A DNA stretch of 8,704 nucleotides from a virus. Its lineage: Duplodnaviria; Heunggongvirae; Uroviricota; Caudoviricetes. This document shows positions 1 through 8,704 of the stretch, piece after piece (the stretch's first letter is position 1; each line of letters starts with the position of its first letter). The stretch lies in the IMG/VR virus record IMGVR_UViG_2609460344_000011, positions 1 through 8,704 of that record, one strand, 5' to 3'. Both the position numbers and the translations under genes were made by a program. The notes under the pieces were generated by a model that had not been told where the DNA came from, ran no database searches, and saw only the letters and a list, made by a program, of their open reading frames with translations.

Positions 1-86
1 TTTCCACCCCTGTACGTCTCACCACCTATATGGTCGTGGAAAGCCTTGGTGGTGAGTTCATTGAATTCAACATAGGGGCTGTCACC

Positions 87-632
87 ATGACTACTCTCCC
101 AACCCAATCTCACCCTGAAATCACGATTATCAATGGTCGCGTTGTCACCACATCTCTTGCAGTAGCTAATTACTTTACTAAACGGCATGAGCGGGTTTTA
201 GATAGAATTAGAAACCTCGAATGTTCCGCTGAATTTACTGAACACAATTTTGTGTTAAGTGAATACACCGACGCATCAGGCCGCAAACTCCCTTGTTACC
301 AAATCACCCGCGACGGTTTTGCGTTTCTTGCCATGGGCTTCACTGGTAAACGTGCTGCCCGGTTCAAAGAGGCATACATAAATGCCTTTAACCAGATGGA
401 AAAACTGCTTTCAAAGCCATCCACGCTGAGCGATGCCGCAGATAACGCCAGCGTGCTTTACTCCCACCTGTCGGTAATCCACAAGGTCTGGCTGCAGCAG
501 CTTTATCCCATGTTGGCAAAAGCCGAATCCCCGCTGGCTGTAAGTCTGTATGACCGCATCAACGACGCGGCGCTACTGGCCAGTCTCATAAATTTGTCGC
601 TGAACCCTTCAGAGGTAAGGGGGCGTAAATGA
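87..632 (+). CDS. Rha-family phage regulatory protein (antirepressor-like)
   Basis: ATG at 87 preceded by GGGG (75-78). The ORF is open from 30, but the N-terminus MTTLPTQSHPEITIINGRVVTTSLAVANYFTKRHERVLDRIRN fits the Rha-domain pattern recalled from memory. Stop TGA 630-632 overlaps the next ATG. Confidence 0.65.
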   Translation: MTTLPTQSHPEITIINGRVVTTSLAVANYFTKRHERVLDRIRNLECSAEFTEHNFVLSEYTDASGRKLPCYQITRDGFAFLAMGFTGKRAARFKEAYINAFNQMEKLLSKPSTLSDAADNASVLYSHLSVIHKVWLQQLYPMLAKAESPLAVSLYDRINDAALLASLINLSLNPSEVRGRK

Positions 633-853
633 TCCGGAATATTTTCAAACGGTTTACCAATCATACTTTCTGTTGTCCTCGTCCGGGTCAGTGGTACACC
701 ACGCCTGCAGGGCATGTTCTACGTGTTAGCCTGGTTGACCGTGAATGTCAGAAGGTGATTTGTGAACCGCTGGGCCGTAATTACCGCGTCAGTATGCCGC
801 TTATAGCCTTTTGCTCCGGAAAAAACATGAAGCATCTCGGAGGTGCTGCATGA
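629..853 (+). CDS. hypothetical small protein (74 aa), translationally coupled between Rha and the O-like gene
   Basis: ATG 629 overlaps the upstream stop (ATGA). Purine-rich SD-like GAGGTAAGGGGG at 611-622. Its stop TGA 851-853 overlaps the next start at 850. No recognisable domain. Confidence 0.45.
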   Translation: MIRNIFKRFTNHTFCCPRPGQWYTTPAGHVLRVSLVDRECQKVICEPLGRNYRVSMPLIAFCSGKNMKHLGGAA

Positions 854-1668
854 GTATGGAGTTGATGGTTAAAGCGATGAAAATTCGAGTGGGAAATCCA
901 TTGCGAAAACTGGTTCTGATTAAGCTGGCTGATAATGCCAGCGATCAGGGTGAGTGCTGGCCCAGCTATCAGCATATCGCTGATCAGTGCGAGATTAGCA
1001 AACGTTCTGTGATGAATCATATTGCGGCCCTCTGTGAGTCCGGGCTGGTAAAAAAAGTCACCCGGAAAGGTGAAAAAGGTAACTCAAGTAATATCTATCT
1101 CCTTCATCTGGATGGTGCAGGAGATTCACTAGGGGGTAGTGCAAATAATTCACTATCTGGTGCAGCAAATTCACCAGGTAGTGCAGGAGTTGCACCAGGG
1201 GGTAGTGCAGGAGATTCACCCAGAACCAGTCACTCTTTTGAACCAGTCAAAGAACCAGTCAATGAACCAATAGCTGTTGGTGAATCTGCTGATGAGTCTG
1301 TGCGAGTTCGTTCAAACCGACCGGAATACTCTCCGGAGTTTGAGCAGGCATGGCTGGCATACCCCAAACGTGCTGGTGGCAATTCAAAATCTGCAGCCTT
1401 CAAAGCCTGGAAAGCCCGTTTGAATGAGGGGGTAAACCCCGAAACCATGCTGGAAGGTGTGAAACGCTACGCGGGCTGGGTATCTGCGATGGGTAACAGC
1501 GGCACACAATTTGTGAAACAGGCTGTCACGTTCTTTGGTCCGGATCGTCATTTCGAAGAATCCTGGGAAGTTCCTGCGGTATCTGCAGCCAGACGCGAGG
1601 ACCCGTACTTCAAAGCCAGTTACGACAACGTGGACTACAGCCAGATCCCGGAAGGATTCAGGGGGTGA
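850..1668 (+). CDS. lambdoid replication initiator O-like protein (N-terminal HTH domain, Gly/Ser/Ala linker, C-terminal domain)
   Basis: ATG 850 with GGAGG at 838-842. N-terminal segment LRKLVLIKLADNASDQGECWPSYQHIADQCEISKRSVMNHIAALCESGLV matches the helix-turn-helix typical of phage O-type replication protein N-termini. A low-complexity linker follows, encoded by iteron-like DNA repeats. Confidence 0.65.
   Translation: MSMELMVKAMKIRVGNPLRKLVLIKLADNASDQGECWPSYQHIADQCEISKRSVMNHIAALCESGLVKKVTRKGEKGNSSNIYLLHLDGAGDSLGGSANNSLSGAANSPGSAGVAPGGSAGDSPRTSHSFEPVKEPVNEPIAVGESADESVRVRSNRPEYSPEFEQAWLAYPKRAGGNSKSAAFKAWKARLNEGVNPETMLEGVKRYAGWVSAMGNSGTQFVKQAVTFFGPDRHFEESWEVPAVSAARREDPYFKASYDNVDYSQIPEGFRG
1111..1221. 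repeat. iteron-like direct repeats inside the O-like gene (candidate replication origin)
   Basis: GTGCAGGAGATTCAC occurs at 1115-1129 and 1205-1219. GGGGGTAGTGCA occurs at 1132-1143 and 1198-1209. ATTCAC recurs at 1124, 1148, 1169 and 1214, giving a roughly 21-24 bp period. Further degenerate copies (GGTAGTGCAGGAG at 1177) lie between. Confidence 0.4.
1240..1271. repeat. short tandem repeat GAACCAGTCAA x2 plus a partial copy, encoding EPVKEPVNEP
   Basis: GAACCAGTCAA at 1240-1250 and 1252-1262, then GAACCAA at 1265-1271, immediately 3' of the iteron-like block. Confidence 0.4.
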
Positions 1669-1670
1669 TC

Positions 1671-2159
1671 ATGAGTCTTTTGAATGAAGTTCAGAAATTC
1701 ATTGAAGCCCATCCGGGGTGTACTTCCGGAGACATTGCGGATGCTTTTGCAGGTTACTCACGGCAGCGCGTTCTGCAGTCAGCAAGCAAGTTACGTCAGA
1801 GTGGGCGTGTGGCTCACCGTTGTGAAGGAGATACACGCAGACATTTCCCGCGCCTGACTGAGAGAGCACAGGAGCCGGAACCACAACCAGTTCGTGAAAC
1901 CAGACCTGTGCGCAATTTCTGTGTCGGCACTAACGACCCGCAGGTGATTTTGTGCCTGACTCGCCAGGCGGAAGAACTGGAGTCCAGGGGCTTATTCCGT
2001 CGAGCTGCAACGGTGTGGATGGAGGCATTCCGTGAAAGCCACTCCCAGCCAGAACGAAACAATTTTCTGGCGCATCGTGAGCGGTGCTTACGGAAAAGCA
2101 GCAAGCGCGCTGCATCGGGTGAAGAGTGGTATCTGTCAGGGAATTACGTGGGGGCTTAA
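1671..2159 (+). CDS. PerC-like transcriptional regulator domain protein with N-terminal winged-helix-like region
   Basis: ATG 1671 with AGGGGG at 1659-1664; the upstream stop TGA 1666-1668 lies just before it. C-terminal segment ESRGLFRRAATVWMEAFRESHSQPERNNFLAHRERCLRK fits the recalled PerC/Pch signature (GLxRRAAxxW ... RRxxC). The N-terminal half looks like a small wHTH. Confidence 0.5.
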   Translation: MSLLNEVQKFIEAHPGCTSGDIADAFAGYSRQRVLQSASKLRQSGRVAHRCEGDTRRHFPRLTERAQEPEPQPVRETRPVRNFCVGTNDPQVILCLTRQAEELESRGLFRRAATVWMEAFRESHSQPERNNFLAHRERCLRKSSKRAASGEEWYLSGNYVGA

Positions 2160-2812
2160 TGAGTAATAAATATTGCCAGGCGCTGGTGGAGCTGCGGAAC
2201 AAACCAGCCCATGAACTGAAGGAAGTGGGCGATCAGTGGCGCACGCCGGACAACATTTTCTGGGGAATTAACACCCTGTTTGGCCCGTTTGTTCTGGATC
2301 TGTTCACTGATGGTGATAACGCCAAATGTGCCGCTTATTACACTGCGGAAGACAACGCGCTGGCGCATGACTGGTCTGAACGTCTTGCGGAGCTTAAAGG
2401 TGCTGCCTTTGGTAATCCCCCGTACAGCCGCGCCAGTCAGCATGAGGGGCAATACATCACCGGCATGCGTTACATCATGAAACATGCCAGTGCCATGCGT
2501 GATAAAGGCGGGCGCTATGTTTTCCTGATCAAAGCTGCCACCAGCGAAGTGTGGTGGCCGGAAGATGCAGATCATATTGCTTTTATTCGCGGGCGTATTG
2601 GTTTTGAACTGCCTGCCTGGTTTATCCCGAAAGACGAAAAGCAGGTGCCAACAGGTGCTTTCTTCGCTGGTGCTATTGCTGTTTTCGACAAGACCTGGAA
2701 GGGACCGGCAATCAGCTACATAGGGCGCGATGAACTTGAGGCATGTGGTGAGGCGTTTCTGGCGCAGGTTCGCCAGCAGGCGGAAAAACTGGTCAGGGAG
2801 ATGGCGGCATGA
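2159..2812 (+). CDS. phage Dam-family N6-adenine DNA methyltransferase
   Basis: ATG 2159 overlaps the upstream stop TAA 2157-2159, with a G-run at 2150-2154. Contains the GNPPY catalytic-type motif (N/DPPY class) and overall resemblance to phage N-6-adenine methyltransferases. Confidence 0.75.
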   Translation: MSNKYCQALVELRNKPAHELKEVGDQWRTPDNIFWGINTLFGPFVLDLFTDGDNAKCAAYYTAEDNALAHDWSERLAELKGAAFGNPPYSRASQHEGQYITGMRYIMKHASAMRDKGGRYVFLIKAATSEVWWPEDADHIAFIRGRIGFELPAWFIPKDEKQVPTGAFFAGAIAVFDKTWKGPAISYIGRDELEACGEAFLAQVRQQAEKLVREMAA

Positions 2813-3135
2813 CGACATTAACTCAATGCCAGCAGCAGGTGCTGGATATGCTGATTTCTTATCAGAAAGAACGTGGCTTCCCGCCAACCAATCAGGAGGT
2901 GGCAACCATGCTGGGATACCGTTCGGTGAATGCAGCGGTGGAGCATCTTCGCGCACTGGAGAAAAAAGGTGTCATCACGATAAAGCGTGGCGTGGCCCGG
3001 GGTATCACTCTTCATACCGCGGTGAAGGACGACGACAGCGAGGCGGTCGGGATTATCCGCGCCCTGCTTGCCGGTGAGGCAAACGCCAGGCTGCGTGCAG
3101 CCCACTGGTTACATGAGAGGGGCCTGAAAGTATGA
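2809..3135 (+). CDS. LexA N-terminal DNA-binding domain homologue lacking the S24 peptidase domain
   Basis: ATG 2809 overlaps the upstream stop (ATGA). Residues 1-68 align without gaps to the E. coli LexA N-terminal domain as recalled: LTxxQQxVxDxI ... GxPPTxxExAxxLGxRSxNAAxEHLxALxxKGVIxI ... RGIxL. The protein ends at 108 aa with no catalytic Ser/Lys domain. Confidence 0.75.
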   Translation: MTTLTQCQQQVLDMLISYQKERGFPPTNQEVATMLGYRSVNAAVEHLRALEKKGVITIKRGVARGITLHTAVKDDDSEAVGIIRALLAGEANARLRAAHWLHERGLKV

Positions 3136-3527
3136 AGCTAATACTGCCTTTTCCGCCCAGCGTGAACACGTACTGGCGACACCCCAACAAAGGGGCGTTT
3201 GCTGGTAAGAGCCTGATAAGCGCGGCGGGGCGAAAATTCCAGAGCGCGGCGTGTGCAGCAATAGTTGAGCAGTTACGTCGTCTGCCGAAACCAACGTCGG
3301 CACCTGCTTCAGTGGAGATCGTGTTGTTTCCTCCGGATAACCGGATCCGCGATCTGGACAACTATAACAAGGCGCTGTTTGACGCCCTGACCCACGCGGG
3401 TGTGTGGGAAGACGACAGTCAGGTGAAAAGAATGCTGGTGGAGTGGGGACCGGTTATCCCGGAGGGGAAGGTCGAGATCACTATCAGTAAGTACGAAAAA
3501 GCGAGTTGCAAATTAGCAACTCGGTAA
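3132..3527 (+). CDS. rusA: RusA-family Holliday junction resolvase (crossover junction endodeoxyribonuclease)
   Basis: ATG 3132 overlaps the upstream stop (ATGA), with GAGAGGGG upstream. N-terminal LILPFPPSVNTYWR and the acidic core DLDNYNKALFDALTHAGVWEDDSQV match RusA family signatures. Confidence 0.85.
   Translation: MKLILPFPPSVNTYWRHPNKGAFAGKSLISAAGRKFQSAACAAIVEQLRRLPKPTSAPASVEIVLFPPDNRIRDLDNYNKALFDALTHAGVWEDDSQVKRMLVEWGPVIPEGKVEITISKYEKASCKLATR
3502..3523. repeat. perfect 8-bp inverted repeat CGAGTTGC-N6-GCAACTCG at the 3' end of rusA
   Basis: CGAGTTGC (3502-3509) and GCAACTCG (3516-3523) are exact reverse complements. No U-tract follows, so it is more likely an operator or RNA stem than an intrinsic terminator. 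Confidence 0.35.
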
Positions 3528-3572
3528 CGGAATTGAGCAACACCCTAAATTTGGGTATTACCTCGTTAAAGA

Positions 3573-3592
3573 TACTGTATTTATGAACAGTG
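3573..3592. promoter_or_regulatory. LexA (SOS) box, consensus CTGT-N8-ACAG
   Basis: TACTGTATTTATGAACAGTG: CTGT at 3575-3578, an AT-rich 8-nt spacer, ACAG at 3587-3590. Candidate sigma70 elements TTGATA (3598-3603)-N17-TAAGTT (3621-3626) lie immediately downstream, before the KilA-N gene start at 3690. Confidence 0.7.
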
Positions 3593-3689
3593 TATCCTTG
3601 ATAACTATTAAAAATCGCAGTAAGTTCATCCTGCATCAACGAAAAGGGAGTGCAGTCCCGCTCGTGGATAAAAATTTGTGGAGAAACCA

Positions 3690-4505
3690 ATGAATCAGTT
3701 GCTTGTAATTGATGGCGTTTCTGTGCGTCAGTACTTCGAATCTAACTACTGTCTTAACGACCTTCAGAAAGCTGCTCTTCTTGCCGCTGGTGAGAATCGC
3801 TCCTCCCGTTCGCTGGAAGTTCACGAGTTTATGCGTCGTCCTGAAACGAAGGCTCTTGTGGAATTATTGGAAGAAGAAACTACGGGAGATTCCCGTAGTA
3901 TTCCTGTCATCACCATTCAGGGGCGCAATGGTGGGACGTATGTCTGTAAAGAGCTGGTCTATGCATATGCAATGTGGATCAGCCCGGCATTCAGCTTAAA
4001 AGTGATACGTACTTTTGATGCGCTTCATAATTCATCACCAGAAGAAACCACATCCGACAAAATTAAATCCGGGGTCATTCTGCTTGAATCAGCAGCAAAG
4101 ACTCTAAATCTGTCAAACTCCTCGAAACTTGGTGCATACCAGAAATTATCAAAGGTAGCTGGTCTTCCTGAACTTATGCCGATCTATGCCATTGATGCAC
4201 CTGCTGATGCGCCAGATGGTTCAAGCCGCCCTACGCTGTCGCTGAGTGCACTGCTGAAGCAGTATGGTATCCGCCTGACGGCTAATCAGGCATATCACCA
4301 GATGGCGAAGCTGGGGATCGTTGAACAACGCGAACGATACAGCCGTACCGCGATTAACAACATCAAAAAATTCTGGTCGCTGACCGCGAAAGGCTGCATG
4401 TTCGGCAAGAACATCACCAGTCCTGCAAATCCGCGCGAGACGCAGCCGCATTTCTTCGAATCCCGATTTCCTGAGCTGTTAAAGCTGCTCGATACCGTTC
4501 ATTGA
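3690..4505 (+). CDS. KilA-N domain protein, probable SOS-controlled antirepressor-like protein
   Basis: ATG 3690 with GGAG at 3680-3683. The N-terminal 110 aa (YCLNDLQKAALL ... IQGRNGGTYVCKELVYAYAMWISPAFSLKVIRTFDAL) fit the KilA-N domain pattern. Preceded by the LexA box. Confidence 0.7.
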   Translation: MNQLLVIDGVSVRQYFESNYCLNDLQKAALLAAGENRSSRSLEVHEFMRRPETKALVELLEEETTGDSRSIPVITIQGRNGGTYVCKELVYAYAMWISPAFSLKVIRTFDALHNSSPEETTSDKIKSGVILLESAAKTLNLSNSSKLGAYQKLSKVAGLPELMPIYAIDAPADAPDGSSRPTLSLSALLKQYGIRLTANQAYHQMAKLGIVEQRERYSRTAINNIKKFWSLTAKGCMFGKNITSPANPRETQPHFFESRFPELLKLLDTVH

Positions 4506-4506
4506 G

Positions 4507-5502
4507 GTGACTGTGAGAGCACTACTGACCCCTGAAATTGCCCCGCGTATGGGGATCGTATTGTTCAGGCCAGGTTCAGAGCTGATGCCCCTGTTTATGC
4601 AGGGGCGTGTCCTGCTGGAGCCTGAGCCGGAGCGTTATTCATCTTTCGCCAGTGGTGCCGTTCCGGCGGCATCACAACCGCTGGCGGATGATCCTGCCGT
4701 TCGGGCCGTGTTCCGCCATGAGGCAGTGATCCGTCGTGCTGGTGGCGTGGAATGTCTTGAAAGCTGGTTACTTCGTGAAAAAGGCTGCCAGTGGCCTCAT
4801 TCCGGATGGCACAGCGAGAACATGACCACAATGCGACACGCTCCGGGCGCAATCCGTCTGTGCTGGCACTGCGATAACCAGCTGCGCGATCAGTTCACGG
4901 AACGGCTGGAATCAATGGCAACGGATAACTGTGCCCGCTGGGTGTTGTCTGTTGTGCGTCGGGATCTCGGTTTTGATGACAGTCACGTTGTGACAATGCC
5001 GGAACTGTGCTGGTGGCTGATTCGTAATGACCTGGCGGATGCCTTACCGGAAAGTGCAGCCCGTAAGGCACTGAGATTACCGAAGCCTGTTGTGCCGTCT
5101 GTCACCCGGGAAAGTGACCTTGTGCCTTCGGTTCCTGCCACCAGCATCATCCAGGATAAAGCGAAAAAGGTGCTGGCGCTGAAAGTGGATCCGGAGTCGC
5201 CGGAGTCTTTTATGTTACGCCCCAAACGTCGCCGCTGGGTTAATGAAAAGTACACGCGCTGGGTTAAGACGCAGCCGTGTGCATGTTGTGGAAAGCCTGC
5301 TGATGATCCCCACCACCTGATAGGCCACGGTCAGGGGGGAATGGGTACAAAAGCGCATGACCTCTTCGTGCTGCCTTTGTGCAGAAAGCATCACGACGAG
5401 CTGCATGCGGATACCGTGGCATTTGAAGAGAAGTATGGCTCCCAGCTGGAGCTGATATTTCGTTTTATCGATCGTGCGCTGGCAATAGGCGTGCTGGCCT
5501 GA
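4507..5502 (+). CDS. DUF968-family protein with C-terminal HNH-like Cys/His motif
   Basis: C-terminal CACCGKPADDPHHLIGHGQGGMGTKAHDLFVLPLCRKHHDELH resembles the DUF968 family found next to Q in E. coli prophages. The start is uncertain: GTG 4507, GTG 4513 or ATG 4549, none with a strong SD. Confidence 0.6.
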   Translation: MTVRALLTPEIAPRMGIVLFRPGSELMPLFMQGRVLLEPEPERYSSFASGAVPAASQPLADDPAVRAVFRHEAVIRRAGGVECLESWLLREKGCQWPHSGWHSENMTTMRHAPGAIRLCWHCDNQLRDQFTERLESMATDNCARWVLSVVRRDLGFDDSHVVTMPELCWWLIRNDLADALPESAARKALRLPKPVVPSVTRESDLVPSVPATSIIQDKAKKVLALKVDPESPESFMLRPKRRRWVNEKYTRWVKTQPCACCGKPADDPHHLIGHGQGGMGTKAHDLFVLPLCRKHHDELHADTVAFEEKYGSQLELIFRFIDRALAIGVLA

Positions 5503-5519
5503 TTTTGTGGAGAAAGTTG

Positions 5520-5891
5520 ATGCGTGATATTCAAATGGTTCTTGAACGTTGGGGGGCATGGGTGGCAAATAATCACGAGGATGTGGAATGGTCATCTGTT
5601 GCTGCAGGTTTTAAGGGATTAATTCCTTCGAAAGTAAAATCCCGCCCGCAATGTAGCGATGACGATGGCCTGATCATTAGCTCTGCGATGACAGTTCTTA
5701 AGAAAAAGGAACCGTATCAATACGAATTACTGGAAATGTATTATGTGTATGGGGTTACATTACGGGTGTTGGGGGTAAAACTGGGGATATCACTTAATCA
5801 GGTTGTTATCAGACTGCAGAAAGCTGAAGGGTTTATTGACGGTTGTCTGGCAATGTTGGGGGTATCTTTAGAAATTGATTGTTACATATAG
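5520..5891 (+). CDS. Q-like late-gene antiterminator (small, about 123 aa, quuD-type)
   Basis: ATG 5520 with GGAGA at 5509-5513. The size, the position after rusA/DUF968 and before the tRNA cluster, and the N-terminal MRDIQMVLERWGAW match my recollection of small Q antiterminators of E. coli prophages. Family assignment is from memory, not a search. Confidence 0.55.
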   Translation: MRDIQMVLERWGAWVANNHEDVEWSSVAAGFKGLIPSKVKSRPQCSDDDGLIISSAMTVLKKKEPYQYELLEMYYVYGVTLRVLGVKLGISLNQVVIRLQKAEGFIDGCLAMLGVSLEIDCYI

Positions 5892-5930
5892 TAATAAATT
5901 CAATCAAAGTAAATAATCATATTTTATTAT

Positions 5931-5963
5931 AACCTCCTGATGATACCTGTTCATTGGGAGGTT
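5931..5963 (+). promoter_or_regulatory. inverted repeat AACCTCC-N19-GGAGGTT that can sequester the Shine-Dalgarno of the downstream gene
   Basis: AACCTCC (5931-5937) is the exact reverse complement of GGAGGTT (5957-5963). The right arm contains the SD (GGGAGG 5956-5961) of the ATG at 5967. Candidate -10 hexamers TATTAT/TATAAC at 5925-5933. Confidence 0.35.
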
Positions 5964-5966
5964 ATT

Positions 5967-6584
5967 ATGGATAAAAATGTAGAGCATGTATTAGTTGATG
6001 CAATTGAAAATAAGCAATCTTTAACAGTCGTTTACTTAGGAGGGAGCCAGCCCGGAACATTAAGGAATATTTCTCCGATTAGTATAAATGGGGATAAATT
6101 GCGGGCAAGATGCCATAGTTCTGGAGCAGTAAAGGTTTTCAATCTTGGGAAAATACAGTTACCCAGTGACTCCTGCGCGGTATCTATGCACTATGGAGAT
6201 TTAGAAGTTAAAGCTTATGAGACGATGCAGAGCGTAAATGACAACTTTCATGCCCTTTATCCTGAAGGACGATGGGGTGTTGATTTTAATGAGCATCGCT
6301 TTGCTTTATTTGATTTTTTTAAAAACGGGAAACGAAAAAAAACGGCATTTATGGCAATTGAGTTCAGGGAAAGAGATGAAGAGAAAATAATAACAGGTGT
6401 AACAATTGATATTGGTATATCTGGAACAGTGATTTCTGAGAAGTCCCGAATCCCAAAAAGACGACCATGGGTAGTGGTTGGTCCCGAACACGGAGAATAC
6501 AGTACTTATTCAACTTTGGACAAGGCTGCTACAGCGTTTTTTGAGAGGCTTTCGTTGATAGCATCCGGCCTGGAAGATAATTGA
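5967..6584 (+). CDS. hypothetical protein (205 aa), AT-rich accessory gene of unknown function
   Basis: ATG 5967 with a perfect GGGAGG SD at 5956-5961; an alternative ATG at 5940 has no SD. No family recognised. Markedly AT-rich relative to the upstream genes (by eye). Hand count: 11 of 12 Arg codons are AGA/AGG/CGA/CGG and 6 of 14 Ile codons are ATA. Confidence 0.6.
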   Translation: MDKNVEHVLVDAIENKQSLTVVYLGGSQPGTLRNISPISINGDKLRARCHSSGAVKVFNLGKIQLPSDSCAVSMHYGDLEVKAYETMQSVNDNFHALYPEGRWGVDFNEHRFALFDFFKNGKRKKTAFMAIEFRERDEEKIITGVTIDIGISGTVISEKSRIPKRRPWVVVGPEHGEYSTYSTLDKAATAFFERLSLIASGLEDN

Positions 6585-6716
6585 TTTTATGTTTGGTATT
6601 CAGAGTTCGCCGTGCTTAAGAAAGTCAAGATTCTAAAAATACTGAATGAGCTACTTGTGTTATAACAAAAATGCTATTAGTGTGTTAAGAGTGGTTACTT
6701 CGCCACACAACTTAAC

Positions 6717-6738
6717 CCCGCCACTGAGCGGGTTTTTT
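6717..6738 (+). terminator. intrinsic terminator
   Basis: Stem CCCGC (6717-6721) / GCGGG (6728-6732), loop CACTGA, followed by T6 (6733-6738). Confidence 0.6.
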
Positions 6739-6788
6739 GTACCTGTAAACTTGGTGCAGTACAGTAAACACGCTGGTGGTCGTGAATA

Positions 6789-6815
6789 CTGGCTTTTTAT
6801 CTTGCTGGCTTTTTA
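6789..6815. repeat. 11-bp perfect direct repeat CTGGCTTTTTA x2 (candidate regulator-binding site)
   Basis: CTGGCTTTTTA at 6789-6799 and 6805-6815, a 16-bp centre-to-centre spacing, about 50-75 bp upstream of the ATG at 6863. Confidence 0.35.
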
Positions 6816-6862
6816 GACAAGAGTTATTGGTATGTCACGTTAACCGGAAAGGGTAAAAAGAC

Positions 6863-7060
6863 ATGCTGAAACAGCAGGATATGACAGAAACCGCCAGAGT
6901 TGTGTTTGATGAATTAAGCGTTACCGAACCGGCGACAGTCGGGGAGATTGCGCAGAATACTTACCTTTCACGCGAACGCTGCCAGTTAATACTGACCCAG
7001 CTTGTTATGGCGGGTCTGGCAGACTATCAGTGCGGTTGTTACAGACGCCTTCAGTCCTGA
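6863..7060 (+). CDS. hypothetical small protein (65 aa), possible winged-helix (PapI/FaeA-like) DNA-binding protein
   Basis: ATG 6863 with a weak purine-rich stretch GGAAAGGG upstream. A helix-turn-helix-like segment ATVGEIAQNTYLSRERCQLILTQLVMAGL. Bracketed by intrinsic terminators. Assignment is tentative. Confidence 0.4.
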   Translation: MLKQQDMTETARVVFDELSVTEPATVGEIAQNTYLSRERCQLILTQLVMAGLADYQCGCYRRLQS

Positions 7061-7073
7061 AGGCTTTTTATTT
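7047..7073 (+). terminator. intrinsic terminator overlapping the stop codon of the 65-aa ORF
   Basis: Stem GCCTTCA (7047-7053) / TGAAGGC (7058-7064), loop GTCC, followed by TTTTTATTT (7065-7073). Confidence 0.55.
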
Positions 7074-7194
7074 GTGGTGAATGGGCGGCTGGTGGGGGGG
7101 CGACACCTGTCAGTCCTTTGCTTATGTGTTGATGATAATTTACCTTTTGGGGCTATAATTGAGCTAACCAATTGCTAATGAAAGTAAAATTATA

Positions 7195-7908
7195 ATGGCT
7201 GTTGTCTGTTCAGTTATCATGGTTTGCTCCCCAATTAATATTTTTCTTGAAAAGGATACGTTGTCACTTAAGCCAGGCTCAGTTGTTCTGGCCACCAAAT
7301 GCATCAGGGAGCTTTTCCTTATGCATTATGGCAAAGTTAAAATTGTCGATATAAGCGAATCCGTCGTAAGTCAATATCTGGAAAGTCAGCATAAGCTGAC
7401 GAGGACTCGTCTGACTGACATTCCGCTTTACCTGTTGCTGGAACCCAACAATCCTGCGTTGGCTGCGGCTTTAATTACCAGCCAGGGATTTTCCGGAGAG
7501 GCCACGGATATGTTTCTTATGATGGCCTGCCTGTCTCTGTTTGAAACAGATGAACGGATGTCATTGTTTTTAAGTGGATGTTTATCCAGCATAAGTGCCA
7601 AAGTCAGGGCGATAATTCAGACAGATATATCAGCAAGCTGGACGCTTGGTGCGATTGCTCTACAGTTGCATATGAGTGAGAGTTTGTTAAAGACAAAACT
7701 GAAAAATGAAGGGGGCATGTTCAGTCGCTTGTTGCTGGAAGAGCGGATGCGTGTTGCTGTAAATATGTTATGTTCCCGGCATGGATATGGACAGGCTATA
7801 GCAGAAAAATGCGGTTATTCAAGCAGGTCCTACTTTATTTCTGTATTTCACCGCTATTATGGCTTCCCGCCAGACAGATATGTATCCAGGCAAGGGCTTG
7901 ATTATTGA
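7195..7908 (+). CDS. AraC-family transcriptional regulator (AppY/GadX/YdeO/Rns-like)
   Basis: C-terminal AraC-type HTH (WTLGAIALQLHMSESLLKTKLKNEGGMFSRLLLEERMRVAVNMLCSRHGYGQAIAEKCGYSSRSYFISVFHRYYGFPP). N-terminus MAVVCSVIMVC resembles the AppY-like subgroup as recalled. AT-rich, with 5 AGG, 1 AGA and 5 ATA codons by hand count. No clear SD; an alternative start is ATG 7219. Confidence 0.7.
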   Translation: MAVVCSVIMVCSPINIFLEKDTLSLKPGSVVLATKCIRELFLMHYGKVKIVDISESVVSQYLESQHKLTRTRLTDIPLYLLLEPNNPALAAALITSQGFSGEATDMFLMMACLSLFETDERMSLFLSGCLSSISAKVRAIIQTDISASWTLGAIALQLHMSESLLKTKLKNEGGMFSRLLLEERMRVAVNMLCSRHGYGQAIAEKCGYSSRSYFISVFHRYYGFPPDRYVSRQGLDY

Positions 7909-7936
7909 TTTTCATCTGATTATTATTTTTTGGCTC

Positions 7937-8012
7937 GGCCCTTTAGCTCAGTGGTGAGAGCGAGCGACTCATAATCGCCAGGTCGCTGGTTCAAATCCAG
8001 CAAGGGCCACCA
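7937..8012 (+). tRNA. tRNA with anticodon CAU, most likely tRNA-Ile2 (lysidine, reads AUA); generic annotation would be tRNA-Met
   Basis: Hand-folded cloverleaf: acceptor GGCCCTT/AAGGGCC, D-arm GCTC/GAGC, anticodon loop CTCATAA, T-arm GCTGG/CCAGC with TTCAAAT loop, encoded CCA. Close to E. coli ileX as recalled. Confidence 0.8.
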
Positions 8013-8019
8013 TCACATA

Positions 8020-8096
8020 CCGCCATTAGCTCATCAGGAAAGAGCGCCAGCCTTCGAAGCTGGCTGCGCGGGGTTCAAGTCCCCGATGGCGGTCCA
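8020..8096 (+). tRNA. tRNA-Arg, anticodon UCG (reads CGA/CGG)
   Basis: Acceptor CCGCCAT/ATGGCGG, D-arm GCTC/GAGC, anticodon stem CCAGC/GCTGG with loop CTTCGAA, T-arm CGGGG/CCCCG with TTCAAGT loop, encoded CCA. The C1-G72 first pair is unusual but the fold is complete. Confidence 0.75.
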
Positions 8097-8109
8097 TTAT
8101 CTGCATCAT

Positions 8110-8186
8110 GCGTTGTTAGCTCAGCCGGACAGAGCAATTGCCTTCTAAGCAATCGGTCACTGGTTCGAATCCAGTACAACGCGCCA
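8110..8186 (+). tRNA. tRNA-Arg, anticodon UCU (reads AGA/AGG), argU-like
   Basis: Acceptor GCGTTGT/ACAACGC, D-arm GCTC/GAGC, anticodon stem ATTGC/GCAAT with loop CTTCTAA, T-arm ACTGG/CCAGT with TTCGAAT loop, encoded CCA. Confidence 0.8.
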
Positions 8187-8200
8187 CACTTATTTTCCCT

Positions 8201-8227
8201 GGCTCGCTTTTGCGGGCCTTTTTTTTT
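8201..8227 (+). terminator. intrinsic terminator downstream of the tRNA cluster
   Basis: Stem GGCTCGC (8201-8207) / GCGGGCC (8212-8218) with one G-U pair, loop TTTT, followed by T9 (8219-8227). Confidence 0.65.
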
Positions 8228-8439
8228 AAATGTCTCACAATTCAGGCGGTTGACTGTTGTCTGGTTTGCGGGGAGTTTGTTAAAAGAAACTGGCATGGTG
8301 AATCCCCCTGTGCGGAGGGGCAATCAGCAACTGGTGTTTTGTCACCGACCCTTATCCTTTCTGTGCGGGTTCAGGTGCTGATACTGAACTCACCGGGAGG
8401 CACCCGGCACCATGCAATGGCACATAGCGCCACTCTCCA

Positions 8440-8463
8440 GCCCCTCTCCGGAGGGGCTTTCTT
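8440..8463 (+). terminator. GC-rich hairpin with weak T-rich tail (possible attenuator or terminator)
   Basis: Stem GCCCCTC (8440-8446) / GAGGGGC (8451-8457), loop TCCG, followed by TTTCTT. Confidence 0.35.
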
Positions 8464-8469
8464 ATGGAC

Positions 8470-8497
8470 AAAAAAATCCCGCGCTGGGAGACGCGGG
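8470..8497 (-). terminator. candidate minus-strand intrinsic terminator
   Basis: Stem CCCGCG (8478-8483) / CGCGGG (8492-8497) with an 8-nt loop, preceded on the + strand by A7 (8470-8476). On the minus strand this reads hairpin then U7. Confidence 0.35.
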
Positions 8498-8691
8498 CGG
8501 CAAGGAATAAACAACAAAACGTGAAGTAATATTTCAGTTGGCGAATAATATCCGACAGTAATCACTCTGCGCAATAGCGCGGCCTTTTTCGTATTGCGGG
8601 CTGTTGTCTATCTTCTGCCATTATCCTGTAACTTCCGGACTTCAGCCCGCTCCTCATTTTACTCACAATATTATCCAGGCCGGGAGGATTC

Positions 8692-8704
8692 ATGGCATTT
8701 AAAC
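8692..8704 (+). CDS. 5' end of an unidentified gene running out of the window (begins MAFK)
   Basis: ATG 8692 preceded by GGGAGG at 8681-8686 with 5-nt spacing. Only 4 codons are visible. Confidence 0.3.

Follow-up and report, generated by a model that had tools for sequence, protein, structure and literature searches.

The 8,704-nucleotide stretch analyzed here (positions 1 to 8,704 of the IMG/VR virus record IMGVR_UViG_2609460344_000011; hereafter, the window) is part of a lambdoid prophage of extraintestinal Escherichia coli (ExPEC). Downstream of the antiterminator gene Q, it carries a gene (5967..6584, on the plus strand, as are Q and the named features downstream of it) whose 205-amino-acid (aa) product (RefSeq WP_000360285.1; phrog_8498) combines an N-terminal WYL domain with a C-terminal domain that lies outside every described family. 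The WYL domain keeps three of the residues through which the regulator DriD contacts the backbone of single-stranded DNA (ssDNA). We tentatively propose that the product is a non-transcriptional WYL sensor that works on its own, is borne on a moron cassette, and acts in phage-host or phage-phage conflict. The functional evidence is circumstantial, and it is reasonable, based on sequence analysis, to regard the protein as a candidate new phage-conflict factor.

The open reading frame (ORF) begins at ATG 5967, with the Shine-Dalgarno sequence GGGAGG upstream at 5956-5961, and its stop codon ends at 6584; the coordinates and length given in a first-pass annotation, which was made from the sequence alone, were correct. 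An alternative 214-aa reading from ATG 5940 lacks a Shine-Dalgarno sequence. In RefSeq, the product of WP_000360285.1 is named “hypothetical protein” or “WYL domain-containing protein”; the WYL annotation of the gene is already known, and the protein is not a new kind of object. A literature search for the accession returned nothing, and literature searches found no experimental test of the protein, consistent with the earlier description of its function as undescribed. The allele is identical at 100% in 53 of 5426 complete E. coli genomes, including those of strains S88 and MS7163, and a second allele with 72% protein identity is present in 22 genomes (the variant in locus L057). The ratio of nonsynonymous to synonymous substitution rates (dN/dS) between the gene and the L057 variant is 0.22, indicating that the protein is under purifying selection. 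In the S88 prophage copy, the large terminase gene (L001 22155-24081) is annotated as frameshifted, and the prophage may therefore be defective there; the cargo gene is still 100% conserved in the 53 genomes.

The first-pass annotation recognized no family for this protein; however, profile searches and structure prediction identified a WYL domain in the N-terminal third (residues 1-65; 5967..6161), and the protein belongs to a large family, with a full-length match to phrog_8498 (E = 2.9e-126), which is annotated in PHROGs as unknown function. AlphaFold, run with a 106-sequence alignment, produced a model with a mean predicted local distance difference test (pLDDT) score of 86.5. The front part of this model consists of one helix (residues 3-14) and a five-stranded barrel (residues 19-59), in agreement with the Sm/SH3-like five-stranded barrel of solved WYL domains, and residues 69-79 form a disordered linker. 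The Pfam WYL model (PF13280) matched residues 8-64 with 16.5 bits, which is under the gathering threshold of 21.8, and five relatives scored 12.5-20.0 bits against the same model. The family profile matched the WYL domain of DriD in PDB (E = 1.6e-5). A search with the whole protein sequence against PDB chains gave no match, and an NCBIfam search of the whole protein gave nothing meaningful.

Within the WYL domain, Y23, G26, R33, and K56 are invariant across the family, and G25, S27, G30, P37, A47, F58, and K62 are present in ≥90% of members. The family consensus YhGGSqPGavReIaP aligned to DriD YEGGSTPGRTREVTP, such that Y23 (invariant), S27 (93%), and R33 (invariant) correspond to DriD Y168, S172, and R178, respectively. 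In crystal structures of DriD with ssDNA, Tyr168, Ser172, and Arg178 form hydrogen bonds with the DNA backbone (PMC9186387). Following the general WYL pattern rather than an alignment, K56 (invariant) and F58 (94%) may be the equivalents of DriD R204 and W206. The Trp-Tyr-Leu tripeptide itself is absent, with K44-L45-R46 as the equivalent residues; DriD also has a degenerate tripeptide (NYL). CapW and BrxR likewise have ssDNA as their ligand (PMC11662680; PMC13622015). No helix-turn-helix (HTH) family in Pfam or NCBIfam matched the 205-aa protein, in which a single 12-residue helix precedes a barrel starting at approximately residue 18, and the protein has no WCX domain.

The C-terminal alpha/beta domain (residues 87-200; 6225..6566) is predicted to open with a helix, continue through ~seven antiparallel strands, and close with a long helix. 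Its conserved motifs are GW103, L114, KNGK (residues 119-122), K125, RPW (residues 166-168), A187, and F191. A profile of the domain found no credible match in PDB or Pfam (1ylx was a weak match, with E = 0.063), and a fold search against BFVD found no match at E ≤ 1e-3. The order of elements (helix, antiparallel sheet, helix) is shared with the CyaY/frataxin-type alpha-beta sandwich and with PsiB.

We used an exhaustive profile search to estimate the size of the family, which contains 954 clusters at 50% identity with E ≤ 1e-3, including 191 with E ≤ 1e-30. Nearly all members are stand-alone proteins of 185-210 aa (about 195 aa) that match over their whole length, and relatives come from marine, soil, Bacteroidota, and cyanophage sequences. 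Transmembrane anchors of one or two helices, located at the N- or C-terminus, were identified in 4 of about 195 family proteins (P0090, P0127, P0143, and P0144), and double zinc ribbons were additionally seen in P0090. The anchored members show a pattern typical of sensor-effector fusions. In P0180, the WYL domain is duplicated in tandem.

Related loci were searched with a 5-sequence alignment because the 106-sequence alignment was too diverse for this purpose. Across ~34 non-E. coli loci, the 116 flanking ORFs included no recurrent neighbor gene, and a fixed partner gene was ruled out by this survey. At most of the sampled loci, the neighbors are uninformative. Several relatives lie directly 3′ of a CI-like repressor gene and divergent from cro, which is the position, next to cI, that rexAB occupies in lambda. 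One relative is found elsewhere in a prophage immunity region; in Pseudoalteromonas phage PY3, a relative lies between the integrase and the repressor. Others lie between structural genes and rha, one is in a cyanophage, and one is on a conjugative-element-like contig (TraG_N, integrase). Three relatives adjoin defense-type genes in separate islands: NsnA, HEPN, and NERD genes in a Leucothrix chromosomal island; genes for an SMC-like ATPase and an Mrr-nSTAND3 protein on a Bacteroidota-like contig; and genes for an OLD-family nuclease and an HD dGTPase-like protein in a third island.

In one sub-family, found in some phages, the two-domain WYL protein is fused to an additional domain of roughly 150-170 aa, which we refer to as “ext.” In other loci, ext is encoded as a separate ORF just downstream of the WYL gene, and at still other loci its partner is a 111-aa SWIM zinc-finger protein instead of WYL (ext locations: L006 2600-3112; L109/L110 5592-6041; L117 3457-3912; L126-L131). 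Locus L014 encodes a SWIM-WYL fusion. The ext family had no match in Pfam, PADLOC, or PDB, and the window contains no ext homologue. The arrangement of ext with either WYL or SWIM looks like a modular two-part system.

The gene lies within a cargo cassette (5892..6654; the right boundary is approximate, at 6650-6666) flanked on the left by the gene for the 128-aa antiterminator Q (5505..5891; Pfam Phage_antitermQ, E = 1.5e-47), and GC content falls to 34-41% across this cassette. Homology to Stx2a phages, 1720a-02, PhiR5_1, and phiP27 picks up again at about window position 6650-6683. In phages with an empty site (many Stx2a phages, 1720a-02, and PhiR5_1), the conserved block that follows the cassette starts about 20 nt after the Q stop codon; therefore, the WYL gene, its leader, and a trailer of about 70 nt constitute an insertion of roughly 770 bp. 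The cassette has the character of a moron: it is present or absent at a single site, differs in composition from the genes upstream, and is followed by a conserved terminator-like hairpin.

A survey of this slot in related prophages, as the first-pass annotation had suggested, found it empty or occupied by other genes, in agreement with its proposal that the gene is horizontally mobile cargo. In the Stx2e phage phiP27, the slot holds the 409-aa protein L22, encoded between Q and a gene for a 65-aa protein (L073 1234-2463). L22 is annotated as “hypothetical protein” and has a T5orf172/MUG113 nuclease-like domain; PADLOC identified it as a clear homologue of PD-Lambda-1 (E = 2e-89). The L22 gene is preceded by a good promoter-like sequence (TTGATT-16-TAAAAT) and its own leader hairpin. 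In an Stx2k phage, the slot holds a gene for a 141-aa protein of unknown function. The earlier assignment to a Q-proximal cargo slot was thus right, whereas its equation of this slot with the position of the Shiga toxin (Stx) genes was not. In phiP27, Stx2k, and Stx2a phages, stx is located after the tRNAs, and the WYL gene is 1.35 kb before them. The Stx slot lies between the tRNA cluster and a nanS-p-like esterase gene, downstream of the late terminator. In the variant-2 prophage of a Shiga toxin-producing E. coli (STEC) strain, TerB, DUF3927, and IraM genes are found at the Stx position. On this comparison, Stx-type prophages have, besides the slot for the toxin, a separate second cargo slot immediately after Q, in which defense-type genes are carried.

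The 5′ leader of the WYL gene is predicted to form an RNA hairpin (5923..5971) with a minimum free energy of -23.4 kcal/mol (z = -2.96 compared with shuffled sequences). Its 15-bp core pairs 5929-5943 with 5951-5965, a 5-bp outer helix is also present, and the structure spans both the Shine-Dalgarno GGGAGG and the AUG (5967-5969). Both arms are kept in the 72%-identity variant, whereas the sequence upstream of them diverges. This hairpin may serve as a translational gate that tells read-through transcripts from those starting inside the 5′ arm. Candidates for a moron promoter were limited to -10-like hexamers that are AT-rich and weak (TATTAT at 5925-5930) and lack a good -35, and a generic promoter scan detected promoter-like sites at background frequency (7 versus 6.4 in shuffled sequence).

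Based on alignments of related phages, the conserved block starts with a promoter-like element (TTGTGT-17 nt-TAGTGT; 6655..6683). In three compared phages, TTGnnn-17-TAnnnT occurs at the same position and is followed by the invariant stretch GTTAAGAGTGGTTAC..., and two empty-site phages have a weaker counterpart (TTAGTG / CAGTAT). The generic scan did not report this element; given that the scan performed at background level, the late promoter could not be placed with confidence, and we infer only that the element is a candidate. A terminator scan identified an intrinsic-terminator-like hairpin (CCCGCC-ACTGA-GCGGG followed by TTTTTT; 6717..6738), which is kept after four cargo states (WYL, the WYL variant, phiP27 L22, and the Stx2k 141-aa gene) and is also found in empty-site phages; it is a candidate for tR′ and would close the cassette. 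The post-Q block of empty-site Stx2a phages contains, in order, TTGnnn-17-TAnnnT, the invariant sequence GTTAAGAGTGGTTACTTCGCCACACA, and the terminator hairpin. This conserved block (window 6655-6738; L125 about 2600-2660; L073 about 2500-2550) is a candidate late promoter/terminator pair, which would yield a short transcript, about 45 nt long. In Rfam, neither the leader nor the conserved block after the gene matched any family.

The first-pass annotation had placed the gene between Q and the late genes. Judging from sequence comparison, the gene is probably upstream of the candidate late promoter/terminator block rather than within the late operon, a placement whose sole basis is that the conserved block adjoins Q in empty-site phages. 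Under the alternative that a late promoter precedes the WYL gene, the gene would be expressed constitutively in the lysogen, as PR′ is constitutively active in lysogens (PMC7547250).

The WYL gene has a GC content of 39.6% (32% at third codon positions), and the upstream genes (811-5502) have 48-57%, which bears out the initial observation that the gene is more AT-rich than those genes; Q is likewise AT-rich (42% GC). Earlier hand counts of arginine and isoleucine codons were exact: arginine is encoded by CGC (1), CGA (4), CGG (1), AGA (3), and AGG (3), and isoleucine by ATT (7), ATC (1), and ATA (6). Compared with approximate values for average E. coli codon usage, this load of rare codons is extreme. 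The first-pass annotation described the codon usage as matched to the phage tRNAs, which it located about 1.4 kb downstream (1.35 kb according to ARAGORN); composition, however, explains the codon usage. The share of ATA among isoleucine codons is 0.43, compared with 0.385 expected from the gene’s own third-position composition (P = 0.47), and the share of non-CGY arginine codons is 0.92, compared with 0.75 expected (P = 0.16). The load of rare codons is a by-product of AT-richness, not a specific co-adaptation to tRNAs. Because the tRNA cluster is also found in phages without the WYL gene, the match between codons and tRNAs is a general property of AT-rich cargo beside a pre-existing tRNA cluster; a translational benefit to the WYL gene is possible.

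Under the proposal that the protein is a WYL sensor acting in conflict, the WYL domain would bind a short single-stranded nucleic acid, most likely ssDNA arising from phage replication, recombination, or DNA damage. Binding would be signaled to the C-terminal domain, which would then act by protein-protein contact or oligomerization, not by binding a promoter. The role in conflict would most likely be prophage-encoded exclusion or abortive infection that protects the lysogen; we favor prophage-encoded defense as the direction because of the slot shared with PD-Lambda-1, the repressor-adjacent relatives, and the chromosomal defense islands. With regard to the cargo functions put forward initially, a role in conflict or defense is plausible, whereas a secreted toxin or host-modulating factor gains no support: a hydropathy scan of near-identical family representatives flagged no transmembrane segment, searches of Pfam and PADLOC gave no toxin domain, and relatives occur in marine, soil, Bacteroidota, and cyanophage sequences. 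It is more doubtful that the whole family represents a widespread and undescribed single-protein immune sensor, in which detection of ssDNA by WYL is coupled directly to a non-transcriptional output domain and which would be an exchangeable sensor part of modular two-part systems with ext.

Several observations weigh against this proposal. Within the WYL domain, K56 and F58 are equated with DriD residues through the general WYL pattern, not an alignment, and the family does not conserve DriD R176 or Y192, the latter being the W-Y-L tyrosine. Cyclic di-GMP sensing by a WYL domain has been reported (PMC11880434), and therefore the protein may have a ligand other than ssDNA. With a charge close to neutral, the C-terminal domain offers no mechanistic clue. 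In PADLOC-DB 2.0, the only matches were to weak CRISPR-associated “WYL” accessory models (E = 0.0014 and 0.0066). The apparent association with defense islands comes from a minority of the sampled loci (three independent islands). The gene may be expressed either in the lysogen or in the lytic phase, and the leader hairpin could keep translation low.

Among other explanations, it is unlikely, in our assessment, that the protein is an anti-defense decoy, i.e., an HTH-less phage WYL protein that sequesters the ssDNA signal or associates with host repressors of the CapW/BrxR type, such that host defense operons stay repressed during infection or induction. The protein does have the same ligand-contact motif as the ssDNA-sensing regulators yet no HTH, many family members are in phages, and WYL repressors de-repress BREX, CBASS, and DdmDE on binding ssDNA (PMC11662680; PMC13622015). 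However, relatives also occur in chromosomal defense islands, on contigs where none of the called genes is a phage gene, and several prophage copies adjoin the repressor gene, the usual place of lysogen-expressed genes. Moreover, the WCX dimerization domain needed for pairing with host regulators is absent, and the position of the E. coli copy after Q, at the far end of the early operon, is late for counter-defense.

We assign a similarly low chance to a modulator of DNA damage responses or induction, which would sense ssDNA and act on RecA filaments or SOS, thereby tuning prophage induction or lysogen survival after damage. The likeness of the C-terminal domain to PsiB bears on this explanation; however, the PsiB fold match does not exceed those to frataxin, Mediator subunits, and AcrIIA11 and is within the noise for a small alpha/beta sandwich, and the domain has no sequence similarity to PsiB. 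This explanation also leaves the defense-island copies unaccounted for. A housekeeping accessory, such as a single-strand-binding or mediator protein for the phage’s own replication or recombination, appears improbable. The predicted ssDNA-binding module would suit such a role, and primases, exonucleases, and Rha or ANT genes are among the neighbors in some phages; nevertheless, Stx2a phages that are close relatives and viable lack the gene at the same site, its location differs from phage to phage, copies are also found in non-phage islands, and the carrier prophage in S88 has a frameshifted terminase gene. Finally, a virulence cargo comparable to Stx, either a toxin or a host modulator, whose codons are specifically co-adapted to phage tRNAs is largely refuted and very improbable. 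In its favor, ExPEC strains carry this cargo close to Q in a lambdoid prophage, and its rare arginine and isoleucine codons are abundant, with matching tRNAs 1.35 kb downstream. Against it, the cargo is not in the Stx slot, its codon bias equals the compositional expectation, and the tRNA cluster occurs independently of it; in addition, a hydropathy scan flagged no transmembrane segment in near-identical E. coli representatives, Pfam and PADLOC gave no toxin domain, and both marine and soil bacteria, as well as a cyanophage, have homologues.

Downstream of the cassette, the window encodes the 65-aa winged-helix-like protein (6863-7060; phrog_331, with a weak TrmB match), a gene that is kept after the post-Q slot in many Stx2 phages regardless of cargo. 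It is followed by a gene for a 237-aa AraC-family regulator (7195-7908), for which the nearest named NCBIfam model is YdeO (E = 4e-31 but far below the cut-off), then GadX. In enterohemorrhagic E. coli, prophages are known to carry YdeO/GadX-like regulators that control acid resistance and type III secretion. The AraC-like gene also precedes the tRNAs and stx2k in phage phiSTEC1575-Stx2k, and a DNA methyltransferase is found in its place in other phages. ARAGORN and Rfam identified the tRNA cluster at 7937..8186, consisting of a CAU tRNA (7937-8012), Arg UCG (8020-8096), and Arg UCU (8110-8186). ARAGORN classified the CAU tRNA as Met, whereas homologous copies in other records are annotated as tRNA-Ile/ileZ (Ile2). 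The same cluster also occurs without the WYL gene, in phiP27, Stx2k, and Stx2a phages. The small RNA STnc100 (8264-8469) matched its Rfam family over the full length (143 bits versus a gathering score of 47; E = 6.5e-33) and lies between the tRNA cluster and the esterase gene, i.e., at the stx position of Stx phages. Between 5400 and 8704, the window contains 16 terminator-like hairpins compared with 3.5 in shuffled sequence (~4.5-fold), several of which flank the tRNAs and the STnc100 locus.

Among known systems, the lambda rexAB-like exclusion genes resemble several WYL relatives in their position directly after a CI-like gene and divergent from cro; there is no homology to rexAB, however, and the E. 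coli WYL copy is after Q, not beside cI. The single-gene anti-phage system PD-Lambda-1 is represented in the very same slot by its phiP27 homologue L22, directly after Q and before the terminator block and 65-aa gene, but neither has any sequence or domain relation to the WYL protein. WYL domains are also attached to a helicase or encoded alongside Cas13d, as with WYL1, an accessory protein of type VI-D CRISPR-Cas13d (PDB 6oaw) that has an N-terminal ribbon-helix-helix, binds single-stranded RNA, and is linked to cas13d; none of these three features applies to the 205-aa protein.

An HTH is found in more than 90% of WYL proteins (PMC6789036), and in the regulators with winged-HTH, WYL, and WCX domains (DriD, CapW, BrxR, and PafBC), WYL passes an ssDNA signal to the DNA-binding domain of the same protein. 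The 205-aa protein has neither the winged HTH, and therefore would not bind a promoter, nor the ferredoxin-like WCX dimerization domain; in contrast to those regulators, its WYL domain is N-terminal and followed by an unrelated alpha-beta7-alpha domain, and no regulated operon is adjacent. As far as can be told, this architecture, in which an N-terminal WYL domain with DriD-like ligand residues is joined, in the absence of HTH and WCX, to an undescribed output domain, is new, and we did not find it in the literature. If the protein functions as proposed, WYL ssDNA sensing would also be used post-transcriptionally, and a cheap single-gene candidate would be added to the prophage-borne immunity or counter-immunity factors.

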